Assembly (NCBI GenBank): GCA_964456045.1
Contig: CAYWAD010000001.1
Span: 1 to 52,937 of the forward strand
Direction of reading: 5' to 3'
From: an uncultured Lachnospiraceae bacterium
Lineage (GTDB): Bacteria > Bacillota > Clostridia > Oscillospirales > CAG-272
DNA length: 52,937 bases
This document shows positions 38,101 through 49,348 of the stretch, one piece after another (positions within the stretch are counted from its first letter, which is position 1; every line of letters begins with the position of its first letter). The position numbers and the translations under genes were made by a program. Below the pieces are notes generated by a model. It did no database searches. It saw nothing but the letters and a program-made list of their open reading frames with translations, and was not told where the DNA came from.

Positions 38101-38127
38101 AGACAATAACTTATATTTTGTATAATG

Positions 38128-38997: not shown

Positions 38998-39139
38998 AAT
39001 AAACAAGCCTCCGAAAGTTTGATTTGCGTTCATTATATCACAGAAATTAACGCTTTTCCACTTATTTTAACGAATTTGAAAAAAATATGTGTGAAATTTC
39101 GAATTATACGACCGAATCGCCTCATCAGCACTTCTCTGA

Positions 39140-39167
39140 ATTATACAAAATTTGCATTTTGTATAAT
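39140..39167. repeat. Perfect 28-bp palindromic site (11-6-11 layout) at the left prophage junction, candidate dif-like/attL
   Basis: ATTATACAAAA-TTTGCA-TTTTGTATAAT. Arms pair over 12 bp around the centre TTGC. Its right 17 bp are the direct repeat. Confidence 0.6.
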
Positions 39168-40121
39168 GGGAGATAGAGTTTCCCACTCGAACAAATCGAG
39201 CCATACCGGCGAAATCTTGTCGTGATGAGAACCATATTCGTGTACTGCGTAGAAATCGAATATGTATCGAAGGACTGATTCTGCCGAATAATTTTCAGCG
39301 AACAAAAGATCATAAGGGATTGAACGCTCTTTGCGATGACGAGTTTGAAGCTCGATTCTGATCCAGCTATCCGGCAAAGATCCATCAGATGTATAAGGAC
39401 AAGAATTTAAGTCGTTTTTAGCAATTCGTTCAAGCTTTTTGTCGTAGAAACGAATCATTTGTTGTGAGCTTGTAGTGCCAAAATATATAGTGTGTTCTTT
39501 GTCACCATATTTTACGCGCCAAGAAACACTACGATTTGAACCATGACATATTATATTCGAATTATCAATATGATGTTGTTCGCAAAGATTATGAAGATCT
39601 TCAACAAAAGATCCGGAATAATTTACAAAGTCATAGGCAAAGTCGCAGCGGGTGAAATGGAAATTCCATCCCATATTAGGAATATAGCGAATTTTTTCTT
39701 CAACATCGTATCGCTGAGATCTGAGCCAATCTAAACCAGATCCACACAGATCTATGCGAATCCATGATAAATAGCAGTGCGCGATAAACATAGGGTCATA
39801 ATTTTTAGGATCAGTCACGCGCTGACCATATTCTTTATCAAGTTGCCAGTCAATATCACGAGGTTCAAGCTCAAAGAGAATCCCGTGCAGATTTATGCGG
39901 AGTTTGCGTCCGTAATTAGGATCAGCGAAATAGGAATCGCGGACAGCTGCGAAGAAATCTTCATTCAAACCAATTCCAAAATATTTGAGGATATCGACAA
40001 ACGATTGATCGCGCACAACGATGGTGAGCCAGTCGATTTTATAAAAGACACCGCCCTCACCATTTTCTATTTTGCGCAGAGTGCGATCAGAATATTCATT
40101 ATGTGATTTAACAGAATTCAT
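39141..40121 (-). CDS. Rolling-circle replication initiation protein (Rep_trans family-like), apparently 3'-truncated by the integration junction
   Basis: Motifs FTRCDFAYDF, IRFYDK, RIELQTR typical of replication initiation factor/Rep_trans proteins. ATG 40121 lies 6 nt after GGAGG. The last 3 codons (NFV*) lie left of the repeat. Confidence 0.7.
   Translation of the reverse strand: MNSVKSHNEYSDRTLRKIENGEGGVFYKIDWLTIVVRDQSFVDILKYFGIGLNEDFFAAVRDSYFADPNYGRKLRINLHGILFELEPRDIDWQLDKEYGQRVTDPKNYDPMFIAHCYLSWIRIDLCGSGLDWLRSQRYDVEEKIRYIPNMGWNFHFTRCDFAYDFVNYSGSFVEDLHNLCEQHHIDNSNIICHGSNRSVSWRVKYGDKEHTIYFGTTSSQQMIRFYDKKLERIAKNDLNSCPYTSDGSLPDSWIRIELQTRHRKERSIPYDLLFAENYSAESVLRYIFDFYAVHEYGSHHDKISPVWLDLFEWETLSPIIQNANFV
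39151..39167. repeat. 17-bp direct repeat, left copy (candidate attL core)
   Basis: tttgcattttgtataat is identical to 45692-45708. Confidence 0.65.
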
Positions 40122-40122
40122 A

Positions 40123-40374
40123 TTAAACCTCCGAAGAAGAATTAGAAGCAAGCTTTTTTTCTTGGAAAACACGTGTACGTTCGAGCCAACGACTATAAAA
40201 ATCAAGGTCACGCTTCAAAACTCTGTAGAAACACATCGGAAGCTCGATAAGGGCATAATCATTTTCGTCATATGGAACAAGACTAATTTCACAAGTTTTC
40301 TTAAAAAAGCCATCGTTCATTGGGGAAACCATTCCGTGAGAATCAGTACGCAAGTCATAAATTTTTTTAGACAT
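40123..40374 (-). CDS. Phage hypothetical protein (83 aa) upstream of rep
   Basis: AGAGGTG RBS. The stop lies immediately before the rep ATG. First ORF after the consensus promoter. Confidence 0.5.
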   Translation of the reverse strand: MSKKIYDLRTDSHGMVSPMNDGFFKKTCEISLVPYDENDYALIELPMCFYRVLKRDLDFYSRWLERTRVFQEKKLASNSSSEV

Positions 40375-40468
40375 ATTAAACACCTCTTTTTTTATAGTTG
40401 AAAGCCAAGGAAGTGCAAAGAGGCAAAAAACACTTGGAATAGTGTGCACTTCCCTGCTTTCTATGGAT

Positions 40469-40497
40469 ATTATAGCATATTTTTTTCTAAATTGCAA
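40469..40497 (-). promoter_or_regulatory. Consensus sigma-A-type promoter for the rep operon
   Basis: Minus strand TTGCAA-17 nt-TATAAT (-35 at 40492-40497, -10 at 40469-40474). Downstream, a 9-bp inverted repeat ggaagtgca/tgcacttcc (40409-40417 / 40445-40453). Confidence 0.55.
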
Positions 40498-40578
40498 CAC
40501 TTTTCACAAAAAAAATAAGTGTTTTTGGATATTTTTTTTAAGTAAACAAGGACAATAGAACATCTTCAGAATGCGCGC

Positions 40579-40685
40579 AGGCTCTCCGAGCCTACTACCT
40601 TCCTGACTGGTGATACATTCACAGTCAGGAAAAGAAGCCGGGCTTCGCTCGGATGAACACCCCCCCTTCCCCCCCTCAAGGGGGG
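40579..40685. other. Structured non-coding region of the phage (stacked hairpins), candidate origin/packaging signal
   Basis: Hairpins aggctc-tcc-gagcct (40579-40593), ttcctgactg-12 nt-cagtcaggaa (40600-40631), gaagc-cgg-gcttc (40634-40646), and C7-TT-C7-TCAA-G6 with CCCCCC/GGGGGG pairing (40660-40685). Confidence 0.5.
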
Positions 40686-40695
40686 AAAAAGAAAC

Positions 40696-40771
40696 AATAA
40701 ACCTCGATTGGGATAATAGGGATTTCAAGAGCTTCCCGAAGCCGGTGCAGCATTATTTTCGTTTACAGCGT
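40696..40771. repeat. Inverted duplicate (76 nt, 75/76 identical) of an internal segment of the zot-like gene
   Basis: Reverse complement of 41323-41398, single mismatch at 40762. On the plus strand it encodes INLDWDNRDFKSFPKPVQHYFRLQR. Confidence 0.9.
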
Positions 40772-40998
40772 TTTTAGCTGTTTAAGGTCAAAAAAAATAA
40801 CCGGCTAACAAACCGATTATTTTTTTTATTATATTTGCTTGATAGTCGAAGATTCTTTAGCTACACCAATCAAGCATATCCGGCGGTATTCCGACCGTCG
40901 AAAACTTGCGAAAAAGCGTTTAGAAAGCAAAAAAGCAAAAGGCAGCGTGCTTTTTCTCGTTTCCGGCGGTCGGTGGGATCTATTGATCAAATGGCAGC

Positions 40999-41757
40999 TC
41001 ACTTAGAAAGATCGAGCTTAGCTCGTTCTTGTTGATCTCGATAAGAGCGATTTTTCTTGACCCAGTGAGGGAGAAAAGCGCGGAACGGTGATGATCTATA
41101 CCAGAACAGCCAGCTTTGCTTGACGAAATCATCAGTTAAATTAGCAGTGTCACGCGAATTGTCATTTTGAGGACTAACGACTACCGGCTTTTTTCGATAT
41201 GCTTTACCGGTTATATATACGCGGAAATATTTGCGAATTATAATTAAGTAATCTGCGAGATCGCGAATTTTCTTATCACAATCGTAAGTTTGCGAAAAAG
41301 CTATGTAAATGTGCTTATATTGACGCTGTAAGCGAAAATAATGCTGCACCGGCTTCGGGAAGCTCTTGAAATCCCTATTATCCCAATCGAGGTTTATTTC
41401 ATCGTGCAGTATAACGGAATTTGGTTCAATGAATTCAGGACCAGTATATCCTCTTTCACGAAGTTTTATAATTTTTTTTCGAACATTATCATCATAATAA
41501 GCTTCGGCAAGCCAAGGAAGCAGATTTATATCTATAGGAACGACAAAAGAAAGATCGCAATCGCCTAATTTACAATAAACATTGTAGCCCTTTTCGTTAT
41601 AGTGGGTAGCAAGTTTTTGAAGCATCGTAGACTTTCCCTCGCCTTTCGGAGCAAAAATCAAGTAAAGCTTATAGGGGTTAATATATTTTGATGTAAGTTT
41701 ATTAAAAACAAAACCGATCGAGAAAATCGAGAGGAAAAGAATAAGCAGAATTTTCAT
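40999..41757 (-). CDS. Zot/pI-like P-loop NTPase (filamentous phage assembly protein)
   Basis: N-terminal TM, Walker A APKGEGKST, Walker B VILHDE. 252 aa. Positioned last in the structural/assembly module. Confidence 0.6.
   Translation of the reverse strand: MKILLILFLSIFSIGFVFNKLTSKYINPYKLYLIFAPKGEGKSTMLQKLATHYNEKGYNVYCKLGDCDLSFVVPIDINLLPWLAEAYYDDNVRKKIIKLRERGYTGPEFIEPNSVILHDEINLDWDNRDFKSFPKPVQHYFRLQRQYKHIYIAFSQTYDCDKKIRDLADYLIIIRKYFRVYITGKAYRKKPVVVSPQNDNSRDTANLTDDFVKQSWLFWYRSSPFRAFLPHWVKKNRSYRDQQERAKLDLSK
41323..41398. repeat. Partner of the 76-nt inverted repeat, inside the zot-like CDS
   Basis: See 40696-40771. The spacer between the copies is 551 nt. Confidence 0.9.
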
Positions 41758-41804
41758 ATTTTGCGTTGTTTTTTCGGCACGACATAAAGTCGTGCCGGTA
41801 TGGT

Positions 41805-41978
41805 TTATTTTTTAATGTATACAAGAAGCTTAAAGAGAAAAACGAGGAACAAAGAGAGAGTACAGATAAGAAAAGCGCAAGCTACAAGCGCGAAAAAATC
41901 GTATGTAGAAGCGCGAACAGGTTCAACGCCTATCAGTTCCATTAGAGTATGAGCCAAGCCAGAAGAGAGAATTTTCAT
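41805..41978 (-). CDS. Phage small hydrophobic protein (57 aa)
   Basis: Not in the ORF track (under 60 aa). ATGA overlap with the upstream stop. C-terminal TM FFALVACAFLICTLSLFLVFLF. Confidence 0.45.
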   Translation of the reverse strand: MKILSSGLAHTLMELIGVEPVRASTYDFFALVACAFLICTLSLFLVFLFKLLVYIKK

Positions 41979-42439
41979 AAAAACAACCTCAAAGTCAGAA
42001 CAACAAGAATCACGATAAGGATTAGAACTATAAAGCTGGAAGAATCAATACCCGATCCAGGGATCAAGCCATTTTCGGGAATTAAATGATAGTCAACCCA
42101 TGTGTTATAGGTATATCCGGAGCGAGTATAGCTTTGATAGATCTGAAGCTCACAAAGTGAAGAAAAACGAATATCGTACTCATTAGATCCAATCTTAGCG
42201 TATCCATTAATTACCGAATTAGAAATATTAAAAAGATATCCGGAATCGGTAAGGCATAAGCCATCATAAGAATCTAAATAAAATTCAATATCTCCGGAAA
42301 GCTTAGTGACATCATATGATGAGTTAACATAAGCAATTCTTCCCTGCCAAATATCAACGGTATTTGGATCTACCCATGAACCGAGGCATATAACAACAAT
42401 AAACGTTAAAATCAAAAAAGAGAAAAAATAGAATTTCAC
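41975..42439 (-). CDS. Phage secreted/anchored protein (154 aa), minor coat candidate
   Basis: N-terminal signal/TM and C-terminal TM (FIVLILIVILVVLTL). GTGA overlap with the upstream ORF. Confidence 0.55.
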   Translation of the reverse strand: MKFYFFSFLILTFIVVICLGSWVDPNTVDIWQGRIAYVNSSYDVTKLSGDIEFYLDSYDGLCLTDSGYLFNISNSVINGYAKIGSNEYDIRFSSLCELQIYQSYTRSGYTYNTWVDYHLIPENGLIPGSGIDSSSFIVLILIVILVVLTLRLFL

Positions 42440-42591
42440 TTAGAACCTCGTATGTAAATGATTGAAGTCACTATTATATCAAGCAAAACTAAATATAAGA
42501 AGCATTGAGTAATCCAATGCTCATTAAGCATATTAACATATGCCTTAATATAAGTCAAAGCAGCCGAAAAAACAGAGCTTAGAGAACCCAT
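42436..42591 (-). CDS. Phage small membrane protein (51 aa)
   Basis: GGAGG lies 5 nt before ATG 42591. One TM helix. The longer 92-aa ORF version is rejected. Confidence 0.45.
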   Translation of the reverse strand: MGSLSSVFSAALTYIKAYVNMLNEHWITQCFLYLVLLDIIVTSIIYIRGSK

Positions 42592-42593
42592 AG

Positions 42594-42734
42594 CTACCTC
42601 CGCAGGCATAAGCAAACCATCCAAACAAGGAGAGTTGAATAGAAAAGCACAGAAAAAAAAGTTATCCCCGGGATAATAGTTATATTCAGCATTAACCAGA
42701 TATAATCGACGCAAAGATCAACAAATTCAAGCAT
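42594..42734 (-). CDS. Phage small membrane protein (46 aa)
   Basis: GGAAGGTG RBS 6 nt before ATG 42734. Hydrophobic. Packed between neighbouring ORFs. Confidence 0.4.
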   Translation of the reverse strand: MLEFVDLCVDYIWLMLNITIIPGITFFSVLFYSTLLVWMVCLCLRR

Positions 42735-42739
42735 AGAAA

Positions 42740-42955
42740 TCACCTTCCAAAGCAGCGACAGACGATGACAAGCGTTAAACCACAAATAGCAACTGACGCA
42801 ACGGTAGTAGGCATCCATCCGGACGTGGTTGACCGCGAAATAGACCACAAAGCGGAGGAAAACATAGTGATGCCATTTATGAAACCAACGAGAAGATTCC
42901 ACAAATTGGCAATAACATCAACTATATACTCAAAAAAAGAAACAATAGCATCCAT
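42740..42955 (-). CDS. Phage membrane protein (71 aa), pVI-like position
   Basis: Two hydrophobic segments. Follows the 417-aa ORF, as gVI follows gIII in Ff phages. Confidence 0.5.
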   Translation of the reverse strand: MDAIVSFFEYIVDVIANLWNLLVGFINGITMFSSALWSISRSTTSGWMPTTVASVAICGLTLVIVCRCFGR

Positions 42956-42972
42956 ATAACCCCCAAAGGCTA

Positions 42973-44226
42973 TTAGTCGCCGCTGCGGGATTGGCGAACG
43001 ATAGATCTAATAGGAGCACCGAGCACGATCGCCATCAAGCTAAACGAAAGCGGCACAAAAACAAAAGCTTGTCCCAATGAAGAAGAAATTATCAAATCAT
43101 AGATTTGGCGAAGAAAAGAGACCTGTTCTGTATCAAGTTTAAGCAAATACTGATCAAATGCAGTGAGCGATTCAAACTGAGCCAAGCTAAACGAATCCAA
43201 TGCTTGACGTTGTAATTCGGAATAAGAATCCAAAGCATCGACATCATCATCAGAAATTTGATATTCTTCGGACAAAAGCTTAGAATATTCATTTTCGGCT
43301 TTTGTCAAATAAATATCGAAATAATCTTTGATAATCGCCAACTGAAAATAATTTTCGGCAGTTTTCGAAAGCGACAAATATCGATCATAAAGAGTATCAA
43401 CGACGGCAGCATAAGAGAGAGCGGAAGAATAATCTGCTTTGCTCAAGTCGTATTGAAATTTAGTTCGAATAGTCGAAGCAAACGATTCAATGTCATCGAT
43501 CGAATCATAGATCGAATATGTATATTTTTTTAAGTAATCAAGGTCAACGGAAATTTCATTTTCAAGCAAAGCACAAATATTATCAAGAACCGTTTCAACG
43601 CCTGAGAGATCGACATCAGATCCAGACGGAGCAAAAGCATTGATTCCCATATATGCATACAAACTATATCCAGAACTAGATTGTAAGCTCTCTGGAGCGG
43701 TAAGCTGAATAGCGATCTGTGAGCACTGATTTTCAACGGTTATCGAATAACAAGAAACGTCATAAAAAACAGAATCGATGCTCATAGAACAAGTACCGGA
43801 ATTTCGTCCATAATAGATTTTTTCAGAATCAACATAATAAGTCGAGCCGGAAAAATACATTATAGCGTCAACAGAGTAAGAAGCCGGCAAAAACACATCG
43901 ACGATACCGCCGTAAGGCAAATAAACGTTCAAGCAATAAATCAAACTCGTATATGTGGGAAAAGAAGCAAATCCGCCATGGCAAGTATATGAAGAATCGC
44001 CATATTTGACGGATACTGTTTTTCCGGTGAAATAATTCAAGTAAGAGCTGCTAAATTCATCTAAATTAAAACTATTAAAAGGAGTCACATAAGAATTTCC
44101 AAAATAAGCAAGAGCAATAGTCTGACGGTCATTATAAACGACATATTCAGTCACGGCATAAGCCGGCAGAGAAAAAGAAAGGGCTACGATCAATAAGACA
44201 AATAAAGAAAGTAAACGCTTACACAT
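42973..44226 (-). CDS. Phage adsorption/minor coat protein candidate (pIII-like architecture)
   Basis: Signal peptide MCKRLLSLFVLLIVALSFSLPAYA, large Ser/Tyr-rich ectodomain, C-terminal TM anchor plus basic tail. Largest ORF, directly after the coat module. Confidence 0.55.
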   Translation of the reverse strand: MCKRLLSLFVLLIVALSFSLPAYAVTEYVVYNDRQTIALAYFGNSYVTPFNSFNLDEFSSSYLNYFTGKTVSVKYGDSSYTCHGGFASFPTYTSLIYCLNVYLPYGGIVDVFLPASYSVDAIMYFSGSTYYVDSEKIYYGRNSGTCSMSIDSVFYDVSCYSITVENQCSQIAIQLTAPESLQSSSGYSLYAYMGINAFAPSGSDVDLSGVETVLDNICALLENEISVDLDYLKKYTYSIYDSIDDIESFASTIRTKFQYDLSKADYSSALSYAAVVDTLYDRYLSLSKTAENYFQLAIIKDYFDIYLTKAENEYSKLLSEEYQISDDDVDALDSYSELQRQALDSFSLAQFESLTAFDQYLLKLDTEQVSFLRQIYDLIISSSLGQAFVFVPLSFSLMAIVLGAPIRSIVRQSRSGD

Positions 44227-44227
44227 A

Positions 44228-44353
44228 TCAATAAACCCGGATTATTAATCGAGCACAAAGAGCGATAGCAGCTAAGGCGAATACCGGAGCTGTATACGTA
44301 TACAGCTCCGGAGACGTCCAAAGTTTGAGAAGATCAGACAGAAGCTCTAACAT
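44228..44353 (-). CDS. Phage small protein (41 aa) with a hydrophobic C-terminus
   Basis: Hand-translated as MLELLSDLLKLWTSPELYTYTAPVFALAAIALCARLIIRVY*. The stop lies 1 nt before the pIII-like ATG. Contains the 28-bp palindrome. Confidence 0.35.
   Translation of the reverse strand: MLELLSDLLKLWTSPELYTYTAPVFALAAIALCARLIIRVY
44284..44311. repeat. Perfect 28-bp palindrome downstream of the coat gene
   Basis: ccggagctgtatac|gtatacagctccgg. Confidence 0.9.
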
Positions 44354-44358
44354 AAGTA

Positions 44359-44568
44359 TTAGCCTTTAGAGAGCAAGCGTCCGAATATTCCGACAGCTCC
44401 ACCGAGTACAAGAAAGCCAGTGGTAAGGAGAAGAATAGGAGTCGTCGTTATAGTTTCGGCAACATTCCCAGTCCAAGTAAGAGCCTGTGTTACAACAGTT
44501 CCAAGATCAGTAAGAAGTGATGTCATGGTTACTTCGCCAACAACAGCACCAAAAGCGGAAGTAGGCAT
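44359..44568 (-). CDS. Major coat protein candidate (pVIII-like)
   Basis: 69 aa with an amphipathic/acidic N-terminus, TM PILLLTTGFLVLGGAVGIFG and a basic C-terminus RLLSKG. Confidence 0.6.
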   Translation of the reverse strand: MPTSAFGAVVGEVTMTSLLTDLGTVVTQALTWTGNVAETITTTPILLLTTGFLVLGGAVGIFGRLLSKG

Positions 44569-44631
44569 TTTTTTATCCTTTCTTTTTATTTATTTAAGCG
44601 CAAAGCGCAAAAATATCAATGTCATTAATAT

Positions 44632-44796
44632 TTAATAATCGGCAAACAAAGATTTCAAAAGCGAAGAGATTTTAGAAGAATAGCCCATCACTTCACAAAG
44701 AGTATCAATCTCGCGTTCAGAGAGTTGGTGAGTACCAACGTATGAATAAAGAAATTTTAGAAGCTCAATAAAACCCATTTGTTCAGACGACAACAT
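44632..44796 (-). CDS. Phage small protein (54 aa)
   Basis: Hand-translated as MLSSEQMGFIELLKFLYSYVGTHQLSEREIDTLCEVMGYSSKISSLLKSLFADY*. AAAGGG RBS. Confidence 0.4.
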   Translation of the reverse strand: MLSSEQMGFIELLKFLYSYVGTHQLSEREIDTLCEVMGYSSKISSLLKSLFADY

Positions 44797-44801
44797 GATA
44801 A

Positions 44802-44960
44802 TTACCCTTTCTGTTGAGAAATAAGATAGTTATATGCTTTTTCAACCAATTCGTAAGGAAGATTTCGCACAGAAATAAGCTCAGAAATAACACTATCCTC
44901 AAGAGGAATTTCAGAGCAGAATGCAAGTTGTGCTAAAAAAAAACATTCCAAAATGATCAT
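44802..44960 (-). CDS. Phage small protein (52 aa)
   Basis: ATGA overlap with the stop of the 87-aa ORF. Hand-translated as MIILECFFLAQLAFCSEIPLEDSVISELISVRNLPYELVEKAYNYLISQQKG*. Confidence 0.4.
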   Translation of the reverse strand: MIILECFFLAQLAFCSEIPLEDSVISELISVRNLPYELVEKAYNYLISQQKG

Positions 44961-45220
44961 TTTGAAGAATCCTCAAACAAATCATACGATACAGGATATT
45001 TGTCGACATCGTAGAATACGGTGTCGATGAAGTCACCAAGAGTAAGTTTAGCAGCGCGATTAGACTTGCCAGGACGATTCGGGAAGAAGAATTTGCGAAC
45101 CGCAATTCCCTCTTTAATTTTAGAATCATGATCATAGCAATGAATCGTTATTCCGGATACCTCCCTGTGCGAGTACGTTGCAGCTCGTGCAACAGATTCA
45201 ATTCCAATGATTTCGTACAT
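44957..45220 (-). CDS. Phage 87-aa protein in the gV (ssDNA-binding protein) position
   Basis: First well-supported ORF after the internal promoter. AAAGGAAA RBS. Its size and position match Ff gV. No motif-level support. Confidence 0.45.
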   Translation of the reverse strand: MYEIIGIESVARAATYSHREVSGITIHCYDHDSKIKEGIAVRKFFFPNRPGKSNRAAKLTLGDFIDTVFYDVDKYPVSYDLFEDSSK

Positions 45221-45366
45221 AATTTTGATTTCCTTTCATTTTTTACAAGATTTTTCTGTGACAAAGTTAAAGATAGAAGCAATTGATAATTAAGATCTAA
45301 GGCTTTTTTCAAACGATAATAACGTTGAATTTCTTCAGAAGCTTTACGCATTTTATATTTTTTCAT
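45148..45366 (-). CDS. Possible leaderless small basic ORF (72 aa)
   Basis: ATG 45366 lies 6 nt after the -10 box TATAAT. Overlaps the 87-aa ORF by 73 nt. Weak. Confidence 0.2.
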   Translation of the reverse strand: MKKYKMRKASEEIQRYYRLKKALDLNYQLLLSLTLSQKNLVKNERKSKLCTKSLELNLLHELQRTRTGRYPE

Positions 45367-45372
45367 AATTAT

Positions 45373-45400
45373 ATTATAGCTAATAAAAAGGAACTTCAAA
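45373..45400 (-). promoter_or_regulatory. Sigma-A-type promoter for the phage structural module
   Basis: Minus strand TTTGAA-16 nt-TATAAT (-35 at 45395-45400, -10 at 45373-45378). Confidence 0.45.
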
Positions 45401-45408
45401 CAAAAGCA

Positions 45409-45636
45409 TCATGCTAATTCTTCAAAACCTTTCACAAGATACATAGATTTTTTTTCCGAAAAATATAAATAACGTGGCAGCCCTTCCGAAGCAGCGGTCA
45501 ACGAAAGAAGAATACAGGCGAACCGCCGTCGATCAAGCGGCTGATCAGAGCGCTGCAAATTATACCAATCGCAGACGATGCGATTGAGCATTGCATCGGC
45601 GCCAAGGTTTGAAAGAAGAAAAATATGATTTTTCAA
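45409..45636 (-). CDS. ORF without an SD or ATG start, probably the displaced 3' portion of rep, separated by integration
   Basis: The frame stays open upstream through the right 17-bp repeat (..CQIIQNAKYVETYDVLQANYDFFDRNLKNHIF..). The only start candidate is TTG 45636, with no RBS. Confidence 0.4.
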   Translation of the reverse strand: MKNHIFLLSNLGADAMLNRIVCDWYNLQRSDQPLDRRRFACILLSLTAASEGLPRYLYFSEKKSMYLVKGFEELA

Positions 45637-45691
45637 GTTACGATCAAAAAAATCATAATTAGCCTGAAGAACGTCATAAGTTTCGACGTAC

Positions 45692-45708
45692 TTTGCATTT
45701 TGTATAAT
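45692..45708. repeat. 17-bp direct repeat, right copy (candidate attR core)
   Basis: tttgcattttgtataat is identical to 39151-39167. Confidence 0.65.
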
Positions 45709-49059: not shown

Positions 49060-49112
49060 CGCACATACAAAACAAAAAAACGGACGCAAACCGAAGTCTG
49101 CATCCGTTATAG

Positions 49113-49187
49113 GGTGAATGATGGGATTCGAACCCACGGCCTTCAGGGCCACAACCTGACGCTCTAACCAACTGAGCTACACCCACC
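49113..49187 (-). tRNA. tRNA-His (anticodon GTG)
   Basis: Hand-folded cloverleaf. G-1 is present and pairs with C73. Anticodon loop ttGTGgc, T-loop ttcgaat. CCA is not encoded. Confidence 0.85.
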
Positions 49188-49193
49188 GAAAAA

Positions 49194-49267
49194 CGTACCT
49201 GGGGGGACTCGAACCCACGACCTACTGCTTAGAAGGCAGTTGCTCTATCCAGCTGAGCTACAGGTAC
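49194..49267 (-). tRNA. tRNA-Arg (anticodon TCT)
   Basis: Acceptor gtacctg/caggtac, D-arm gctc..gagc, anticodon loop ctTCTaa, T-loop ttcgagt (one T:C mismatch in the T-stem). Confidence 0.8.
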
Positions 49268-49276
49268 ATATAAAAA

Positions 49277-49348
49277 AGCGGGTGATGGGAATCGAACCCA
49301 CGTATCCAGCTTGGAAGGCTGGCGTACTAGCCGTTGTACTACACCCGC
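49277..49348 (-). tRNA. tRNA-Gly (anticodon TCC)
   Basis: Acceptor gcgggtg/cacccgc, anticodon loop ctTCCaa, T-loop ttcgatt. Confidence 0.85.

Follow-up and report, generated by a model that had tools for sequence, protein, structure and literature searches.

A window of 52,937 nucleotides from a Clostridia genome (contig CAYWAD010000001.1 of assembly GCA_964456045.1) was analysed, and between two 17-bp direct repeats it carries a unit of 6,541 bp with every gene on the minus strand. This region is very likely an integrated inovirus (filamentous phage) prophage in a gut Clostridia host, and we regard its site-specific integration at the 17-bp core as nearly certain. Taken as a whole, the data are best explained by an inovirus of the type called integrative mobile elements exploiting Xer (IMEX), which would have entered a non-canonical dif-like site of the host chromosome and whose replication gene, rep, is split on integration; we put the probability of this explanation at about 0.62.

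Boundaries of the element and the split rep gene

The 17-mer TTTGCATTTTGTATAAT is present in exactly two copies in the window, as direct repeats at 39151-39167 and 45692-45708. Chance would give about 0.06 copies, mismatches at up to two positions included, and none of the shuffles reached two copies. The left repeat falls within the reading frame of rep and belongs to a complete 28-bp palindrome (attL, 39140..39167, minus strand) which, in the minus-strand reading, is ATTATACAAAA-TGCAAA-TTTTGTATAAT, with an 11-6-11 layout; its bases 39151-39167 are the core in common with the right junction. At this right junction (attR, 45681..45708, minus strand), the core at 45692-45708 is followed by a degenerate second arm from the phage, GTACGTCGAAA, at 45681-45691. 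Over 39-46 kb, the GC content is 37-38% against about 42-49% in the flanks, and a strong AT skew makes the coding (minus) strand T-rich. Sixteen minus-strand open reading frames (ORFs) are found between the repeats, with 4-nt overlaps at 41975/41978, 42436/42439 and 44957/44960, among others. We call the element an inovirus because its gene set comprises a Rep_trans initiator, a Zot-like ATPase, a coat-like and a pIII-like protein and small membrane ORFs, without capsid or terminase. No ORF of the element matched integrase, terminase, capsid, portal or tail families in Pfam or PHROGs, and no repressor-like gene was found in the element. A preliminary description of the region had proposed such an inovirus-like prophage, with about 16 packed and overlapping minus-strand ORFs between 17-bp repeats and with neither integrase nor terminase nor capsid; the gene set, the repeats, the packing, the absences and all the motifs it quoted were found again here.

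The initiator itself matched PF02486 (Rep_trans) with 65.6 bits (cut-off 29.6; E = 6e-18) and carries the motifs FTRCDFAYDF, IRFYDK and RIELQTR. In the window, its gene is in two parts. The 5' part (39141..40121, minus strand) has 326 codons and holds the complete catalytic domain of Rep_trans; the three final codons (N-F-V) and the stop are supplied by the host arm. The 3' part (45409..45690, minus strand), with 93 codons for a C-terminal helical domain, is severed from the rest of rep by integration. When attR and attL were joined in silico, the rep frame ran through the 17-bp core into the far-end '75-aa ORF' and gave a Rep of 417 aa. The preliminary description was right on the Rep_trans identity, on the grounds of the Pfam match, the fold and the alignment of the tyrosine motif, but its complete '356-aa Rep' and its separate '75-aa ORF' are really one 417-aa rep split by integration. 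Two database proteins of 417 aa, P0001 and P0002, are 79-80% identical to the reconstructed Rep over 100% of its length, the 3' fragment being colinear with their C-terminal part, and their genes are uninterrupted on two free contigs, L001 and L002 (5.4 kb and 6.0 kb). A third database protein, P0003, is the 326-aa truncated form.

The AlphaFold (AF2) model of P0001, a full-length homologue with 79% identity, has a predicted local distance difference test (pLDDT) score of 83 and matches RepSTK1 (4CIJ) with a template modelling (TM) score of 0.68, and also the RepDE structures 4CWE and 4CWC. The RFYDKK motif of Rep aligns with RIYNKK of RepDE, and a motif of this type is what we take to carry the nicking tyrosine. 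In the P0001 model, the residues I-I-Q-N-A-K encoded by the core are residues 319-324, at the end of the catalytic domain and beside a low-confidence linker (324-326), and a separate helical domain, which the solved Rep_trans proteins do not have, is seen at residues 331-410. According to this model, the 326-aa Rep left to the prophage retains the catalytic fold without the C-terminal domain. A search with the C-terminal domain alone among 1.84 billion representatives returned two close relatives, one of them a full-length Rep, and one weak match. P0155, a protein of 125 aa made of a short leader and the Rep C-terminal domain (70% identical), is probably, by its sequence, an orphaned 3' rep fragment from another lysogen that was mis-called as a gene. 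In the phage collection, the Rep family is almost absent, with a best match of 27.5% identity over 43% of the query.

On the phage side, the attachment site is constrained. The 17-mer ATTATACAAAATGCAAA is invariant, every synonymous position included, in seven Rep genes with about 30% protein identity; the surrounding codons vary freely, and the next 11 nt are a degenerate second arm. This succession of an 11-bp arm, a 6-bp centre and a degenerate arm was found in eight phages (that of the window, L001, L002, L121 and L180-L183), and the att core is inside rep in every family member examined. At the core position, I-[IVL]-Q-N-A-[KN] is found in 24 of 33 Rep family members and different residues in the other nine; since these nine do not have the motif, the constraint on the core is at the DNA level and not at the protein level. 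The intact 28-mer is regenerated at one junction, here at 39140-39167, and likewise in L003 and L121.

L003 is a sister prophage, carried at the orthologous locus of a different species on a 330-kb contig of a metagenome-assembled genome (MAG), with host flanks of 74-82% nucleotide identity. It has the identical bracketing core, the same truncated 326-aa Rep and a Zot-like protein that is 83% identical. The free contig L001, which comes from an independent sequencing run, is 99.2% identical to this sister prophage over the full length and is colinear across the att junction. The relatives are contigs of 5.4-6.1 kb, three of them with terminal overlaps; for the more distant ones, overlaps of 30-141 nt indicate that they are circular. 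On L001 and L002, the order is rep, an 86-89-aa, a 67-69-aa, a 430-aa, a 71-aa, a 51-aa and a 152-156-aa gene, a 58-aa gene (L001 only) and the Zot-like gene, which is exactly the circular, Ff-like order that the preliminary description had predicted. All ORFs of the element are intact and colinear with free circular relatives, and the prophage is probably active. A scan of IMG/VR for the 17-mer gave 55 matches, none with Rep or Zot, and for this reason we take them as chance matches and the Rep family with the exact core as not being in that collection. Two relatives hold genes that this phage is without, namely a PAPS-reductase-family gene beside zot (L180, 704-1570) and a helix-turn-helix (XRE-type) gene after rep (L182, 4490-4711).

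The chromosomal target and the mode of integration

For the host side, the exact 28-mer was searched in one genome per species, and at least 120 contigs from at least 119 assemblies were matched; the counts in this paragraph and the next are among the matches listed. All of these assemblies are gut or rumen Clostridia MAGs, and the 28-mer is single copy in 118 of the 119. One MAG, SVQM01, has it on two contigs (L013 and L082). The site is empty in 118 of 120 cases, and since it is kept phage-free to this extent, the 28-mer is likely to have a host function. A comparison with empty sites had been suggested in the preliminary description, and the empty sites found in these related genomes leave its prophage claim standing. 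The two remaining sites hold a Rep_trans gene that runs into the site and is 29-30% identical to the Rep of the window; of the two, L121 is a prophage of 5.0 kb with the same core at both ends. The reconstructed attB is a perfect 28-bp 11-6-11 palindrome, like the attL junction.

The surroundings of the site are conserved as well. In 72 loci, spoIIID adjoins the 28-mer, with the site downstream and spoIIID always pointing to it, at a distance of 25-1000 nt in 70 of them; trmH-spoIIID synteny is observed, and a conserved gene of 144-155 aa is often on the other side of the site. A Gram-positive spore-former had been named as the host: the Clostridia genome bears out the first part, the relatives being all uncultured MAGs, and for the second part the one pointer is spoIIID beside the site. 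When 118 sites were oriented by the palindrome centre, about 15 conserved bases were seen on one side only of the 28-mer; this host flank (39127..39139, minus strand) reads TCAGAGAAGTG here, with a cross-species consensus of T.AGGGAAGcgAAA, and is kept in both gene configurations. In 29 of 90 species, the unit as a whole is turned round with respect to the same neighbours (trmH, spoIIID and the 144-155-aa gene). From these alignments, the 28-mer would work in either orientation relative to its neighbours, and its inversion in about one third of the species argues against a promoter or operator role. Such a role, suggested by the TATAAT that the 28-mer contains, is unlikely also in that conservation ends about 15 nt beyond. 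A flipping of the hairpin loop was rejected, as the conserved flank moves with the centre, meaning that the whole unit and not the loop alone is inverted. Finally, in 91 loci measured more than 1.5 kb from the site, the replication-associated component of the GC skew amounts to +0.019 on the side of spoIIID and to -0.014 on the opposite side (bootstrap 95% confidence interval of the difference, 0.013-0.052). The sign change at the 28-mer is in the direction expected at a terminus, and the window and L003 have the same sign.

Other features around the site were considered. A tRNA or non-coding RNA target was rejected: Rfam and ARAGORN were blank at the site, and the nearest tRNAs are at 49.1-49.3 kb. 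These form a cluster of tRNA-His, tRNA-Arg and tRNA-Gly (49112-49348, minus strand), a similar one being found in L069, and have no part in integration. A linked xer-dif module was not seen, as no recombinase family occurs in the neighbour-gene clusters of the 28-mer loci; similarly, no tyrosine-recombinase HxLRH box was found in the window or in the 120 listed loci. The contigs of L035, L042, L044, L056, L061, L068 and L124 end within about 150 nt of the site, and no stub encodes Rep; these ends may reflect assembly-graph branching from polymorphism in phage presence or absence. A fourth exact copy of the 11-bp arm TTTTGTATAAT was detected on the plus strand at 38116-38126, 1 kb to the left of attL and between a rhamnogalacturonan-lyase and an RNase H gene, with about 0.05 copies expected by chance. 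It has neither partner arm nor centre and could be a relic half-site or a coincidence.

In the mechanism that we propose, the free form would be a circle in which a single long operon, all on one strand, is transcribed from a promoter before an 83-aa ORF and rep. This operon would run from rep to an 87-aa ORF, small membrane proteins, a 69-aa coat protein, a 417-aa adsorption protein, further small membrane proteins and the Zot-like ATPase, and a structured intergenic region would close the circle. The 417-aa Rep, a Rep_trans nickase with the RFYDKK tyrosine and the C-terminal domain, would start rolling-circle synthesis of the T-rich coding strand, and the power for assembly and for extrusion across the single membrane would come from the membrane-anchored Zot-like ATPase, with a secretin being unnecessary. 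For this exact phage, circularity is presumed, and the formation of single-stranded DNA (ssDNA) and of filaments is expected from its genes. The attP, in the linker codons of rep (I-I-Q-N-A-K), would be a 17-bp arm-plus-centre copy of the chromosomal palindrome. A host Xer-type tyrosine recombinase, encoded elsewhere on the chromosome, would recombine this one-armed dif mimic with the chromosomal site and give an intact 28-bp site at attL and a hybrid site at attR. Integration would leave the 326-aa Rep, with the 93-codon remainder 6.2 kb away and without promoter, and excision would restore rep. Because no repressor gene is present, the splitting of rep may itself keep the prophage quiet and act as a switch between lysogeny and replication.

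Several observations speak for this explanation. The element is without a recombinase gene, the site is 28 bp long with an 11-6-11 layout, and the shared segment is exactly one arm and the centre. The IMEX reading follows from the combination of an integrase-less phage, an attP made of an 11-bp arm and a 6-bp centre, and a site regenerated at one junction; it is this attP, together with the terminus-sense GC skew, that leads us to propose a clade-specific dif. The 28-mer reads ATTATACAAAATGCAAATTTTGTATAAT, and its inner arms, CAAAA / TTTTG, resemble those of the single-recombinase sites difH and difSL (xAAAA/TTTTx). Considering all this, an Xer/dif-type mechanism of integration appears somewhat more probable than its alternatives together, and the host site is a putative dif. 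More tentative, and in our opinion rather less probable than not, is the fuller proposal that the 28-mer is the dif of a non-canonical, possibly single-recombinase Xer system in a large uncultured clade of gut and rumen Clostridia, that the Rep_trans inovirus family carries a one-armed mimic of it in the rep linker codons, and that the splitting serves as a repressor-free lysogeny switch.

Other observations weigh against this explanation. The 28-mer does not match the canonical Firmicutes XerCD dif ACTTCCTATAATATATATTATGTAAACT (inner arms TATAA / TTATG; table of Kono et al. 2011), and its arms do not occur in the supplementary dif tables of that paper. It has no linked xer gene, with none within 3 kb, whereas difSL and difH form modules with xerS and xerH. 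For a dif, it is unusually tightly syntenic with spoIIID, given that the SpoIIID proteins of these species are only about 50-65% identical. The gene orientation around it is not convergent, and the conserved asymmetric flank T.AGGGAAG is unexplained in the dif model. The skew signal is small and comes from loci that are phylogenetically non-independent 8-kb MAG pieces, and all host genomes are fragmentary MAGs. As to the switch, the truncated Rep is predicted to retain a complete catalytic fold, which weakens the idea that integration switches rep off. Finally, scans of Joint Genome Institute (JGI) metagenomes found neither the attP junction or free form of this phage nor the empty attB of its own species.

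Part of these observations would be accommodated if the phage and its boundaries were as described and the palindrome were another ultra-conserved protein-binding site downstream of spoIIID, and not a dimer-resolution site. The integrator would then be an unlinked dedicated recombinase: an integrase from the host or from a helper element, or else a tyrosine or serine recombinase other than Xer. A sequence that is not a canonical dif, strong synteny with trmH-spoIIID, the conserved one-sided flank, flanking genes that are not convergent and the lack of a linked xer gene all count in favour of this possibility. We nevertheless consider it unlikely. The 11-6-11 geometry and the arm-plus-centre attP are signatures of Xer and IMEX systems; the 28-mer is identical in at least 119 assemblies and single-copy in nearly all of them, functions whichever way it is turned with respect to its neighbours, and coincides with a flip of the GC skew; and neither the element nor the surroundings of the site showed another candidate recombinase. 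Integration could also be carried out by the phage's own Rep_trans nickase, in the way of the Rep of adeno-associated virus (AAV), by nicking the extruded chromosomal hairpin and the match inside rep. Hairpin loops are where Rep_trans enzymes nick, the chromosomal palindrome could fold into a perfect hairpin, and the constant position of the att core within rep would fit. However, the phage copy is one-armed and cannot form a hairpin, the core is at an interdomain linker and not at a recognisable origin, and the precise 17-bp duplication (11-bp arm and 6-bp spacer) is the product of a tyrosine recombinase and not of nick-and-join; the perfect conservation of the site in the 118 of 120 phage-free cases is a further argument, and we find integration by Rep improbable.

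It is very improbable, too, that the element is a decaying or domesticated remnant, vertically inherited and unable to form virions, or an integrative rolling-circle plasmid instead of a phage. This would agree with the interruption of rep, with the failure to find a free form of the exact phage in the JGI metagenomes, with the related prophage at the same locus in another species, and with the fact that virion formation is here a prediction from the genes. On the other hand, the ORFs are all intact and colinear with those of free circular relatives, the interruption of rep is an exactly reversible att crossover, an independent sample holds a free form 99.2% identical to the sister prophage, the site is empty in most related species, and the coat-like, pIII-like and Zot-like genes are conserved. 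The Xer-exploiting inovirus with a split rep is therefore the explanation that we retain.

Other genes and the long-range inverted repeat

The Zot/pI-like morphogenesis ATPase (252 aa, 40999..41757, minus strand) consists of a membrane helix at the N-terminus and then a P-loop domain, both visible in its AF2 model (pLDDT 85), and contains the motifs APKGEGKST and VILHDE. The best named BFVD matches of this model are Inoviridae 'zonular occludens toxin' proteins (E = 3e-10, TM 0.55-0.68). By tblastn, the protein hit 69 GenBank Inoviridae records with 34-40% identity, Zot or ZOT being annotated under most of the best matches. The protein of the window itself has no PF05707 (Zot) match and only weak generic P-loop families in Pfam, and PF05707 was matched by 11 of 26 of its homologues. 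The Zot/pI-like P-loop protein of the preliminary description is thus upheld by homologues, predicted fold and motifs, and not by a direct Pfam match, and it is on homologues and fold that we base the assignment.

The 69-aa candidate major coat protein (44359..44568, minus strand), already singled out as coat-like in the preliminary description, has one hydrophobic segment (residues 40-58) and then a basic tail, GRLLSKG. It is the most conserved protein of the element, with 84-100% identity in the sister phages and 67% in L183, whose Rep is just 31% identical. Its gene has 70% nucleotide identity over 132 nt with bajarodino virus 70, the sole stretch of the element with nucleotide similarity to a GenBank inovirus. 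The 417-aa pIII-like candidate adsorption protein (42973..44226, minus strand) is, in contrast to the coat candidate, the fastest-evolving protein of the element, 50% identical in the sister phages. It has no family match, and the signal-like N-terminus and C-terminal anchor attributed to it were recovered as hydrophobic residues 5-23 and 388-406.

Several small hydrophobic ORFs had also been announced, and six more small ORFs, besides the 69-aa and 417-aa ones, indeed carry one or two membrane segments. On the minus strand, a 57-aa protein (41805..41978) with one membrane segment at residues 31-49 is a candidate minor virion or assembly protein, conserved at 77-82% in L001-L003 and 38% in L183. 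It is preceded in the operon by a 154-aa protein (41975..42439) with a signal-like N-terminal segment and a C-terminal membrane segment, and by a 92-aa ORF (42436..42714) with a C-terminal membrane segment. The true start of the latter is probably later, judging from the alignment, because only residues 21-92 align and the gene called there in the relatives has 51 aa. A 71-aa protein (42740..42955) with two membrane segments is in a pVI-like position, and a 71-aa gene is at the same position in L001-L003. A 41-aa protein (44228..44353) has one membrane segment.

The 87-aa ORF (44957..45220, minus strand) occupies the position of gV, the ssDNA-binding protein, and from this position a gV-like function may be supposed. 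It is 60-69% conserved in the sister phages, where an 86-89-aa gene is called; its homologue search returned the query only, and it has no family match. Two small ORFs of 54 aa and 52 aa (44632..44960, minus strand; 44632-44796 and 44802-44960) lie in a variable region, without match in L001-L003 and without family match. The phage-specific 83-aa ORF (40123..40374, minus strand), also without family match, has a good ribosome-binding site and is directly upstream of rep, abutting its start codon; the interval 40127-40377 is unaligned with L003. These 83-, 54- and 52-aa ORFs, which are not in the sister phages L001-L003, may have accessory or regulatory roles. A promoter-like site (40469..40497, minus strand) precedes the 83-aa ORF and rep and is made of TTGCAA, a 17-nt spacer and TATAAT, with TG before the -10; it was the top-scoring minus-strand site of the promoter scan and is a consensus match only.

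The intergenic region that follows the Zot-like gene (40501..40998, minus strand) is structured. Its ssDNA fold has -87 kcal/mol against -59.9 for shuffles (z = -5.1), and its several hairpins make it a candidate site for the origins and the packaging signal. Between the stop codon of the Zot-like gene and the intergenic arm of a 76-nt inverted repeat stands a terminator-like A/T-flanked hairpin (40791..40828, minus strand), with a 16-bp stem in the ssDNA fold. This 76-nt inverted repeat is long-range. Its intergenic arm (40696..40771, minus strand) copies a stretch of the Zot-like gene, inverted, and its coding arm (41323..41398, minus strand) is inside that gene, where it encodes INLDWDNRDFKSFPKPVQHYFRLQR right after the Walker B motif. 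The two arms are 99% complementary, and the att core is not contained in them. The repeat stem dominates the structure predicted for ssDNA, being present in the minimum-energy fold as well as in the centroid one (z = -12.9), as a stem of about 87 bp enclosing about 550 nt.

The same repeat is found in L001, L002 and L003 with 94-98% complementarity. Of the 13-15 substitutions between genomes in the repeat, 10-12 are mirrored in both arms, and the sequences suggest that the two arms evolve in concert. The repeat is absent from L180-L183, L121 and bajarodino virus 30; with these more distant relatives lacking it, it was rejected as a family-wide hallmark and is clade-specific. Candidate roles are a packaging signal, a complementary-strand origin or a recombination substrate. 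If it served as a recombination substrate, inversion would truncate Zot after '...FRLQRF'.

Relation to known systems and significance

The element has much in common with the IMEX inoviruses of Vibrio (VGJphi type), which are also integrase-less filamentous phages with an attP made of an 11-bp arm and a 6-bp centre, then a degenerate arm. A class with a '17-bp left- or right-armed dif-like attP' is catalogued among them (PMC12715192), and VGJphi-type phages integrate as double-stranded DNA (dsDNA), with excision being possible (PMC5357621). As in these phages, the prophage is flanked by two sites, including an intact host site, and reversible excision is expected (PMC5357621, PMC12715192). 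Contrarily to them, the host here belongs to the Clostridia and is not a proteobacterium, and the target is a perfect palindrome unlike the canonical dif. Moreover, attP is inside rep and splits this gene, whereas the terminal genes of the Vibrio phages are rstR/zot/xafT (PMC12715192), and Rep is of the Rep_trans and not of the RstA type, the dependence on Xer being presumed in our case. The element also resembles CTXphi of Vibrio cholerae, a filamentous phage with a Zot morphogenesis protein and no integrase, which uses the host XerCD at dif. CTXphi integrates folded ssDNA via two inverted dif-like sites, irreversibly. In contrast, the single 17-bp core found here, with its fully matching centre, would permit recombination as dsDNA and also excision.

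Gram-positive gut Clostridia are already known to harbour inoviruses (PMC10061712, PMC6813254), and since these have been documented experimentally (PMC10061712), the class of the host is no surprise. Those of Enterocloster (Burckhardt et al. 2023, PMC10061712) are prophages of 6.5-8.5 kb with a pI homologue, 10-16 other ORFs and direct repeats, and were shown to be secreted. The likeness is in the gut Clostridia hosts, the size, the pI homologue and the flanking direct repeats. No similarity to the Enterocloster inoviruses was detectable in searches of the phage collection, and integration mechanism, target and rep-splitting are not described for them in PMC10061712. Uncultivated faecal Inoviridae in GenBank (bajarodino virus 70/30, Dulem virus 64/69 and porcine Inovirus sp. 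MT135284) are circular genomes of 5-8 kb with a Zot-annotated protein that is 34-40% identical. Their Reps, however, are unrelated or barely related, they come without host assignment or integrated form, and the 17-bp core was found in none of the four faecal Inoviridae genomes checked. With related Zot and coat genes already in GenBank viromes, the element is, by sequence comparison, not a new kind of phage. The undescribed lineage of the preliminary description consequently holds in part: relatives of Zot (34-40%) and of the coat gene (70% in nucleotides) are deposited, whereas the Rep family is almost absent from the phage collection.

Rep itself shares its catalytic fold with RepC/RepD of the pT181 family and with RepSTK1 (4CWC/4CWE/4CIJ), with RFYDKK in place of RIYNKK or RFYEKN, and differs from them by its extra C-terminal domain of about 90 aa (residues 331-410). 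For the target, a precedent is given by LME-1, whose att site revealed an unrecognised non-canonical dif with a distinct Xer system, XerL/dif of Legionella (PMC9765430). That element is of a different type and its host of a different phylum, and the Legionella recombinase was identified and tested, whereas the dif reading proposed here is an analogy. We did not find described an attP embedded in rep with splitting of the gene, a non-canonical dif-like palindrome across a large Clostridia clade, or a long-range inverted repeat whose arms evolve in concert.

A family of 5-6-kb circular genomes that is common in gut metagenome assemblies is hereby tied to a host clade, with exact boundaries. The invariant 17-mer and the 28-mer are simple markers to find and delimit such prophages, in which standard tools annotate a truncated Rep and an orphan ORF. 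The 28-mer is also a candidate dimer-resolution site in uncultured Clostridia where searches for the canonical dif would miss it. If both the non-canonical dif and the rep switch are true, these would be, to our knowledge, the first IMEX phages described in Clostridia, and the phage would be a pointer to an unknown dimer-resolution system, as LME-1 was for Legionella. The lysogeny design would then be a compact one, in which a host recombinase both integrates the phage and dismantles rep, with neither integrase nor repressor needed.

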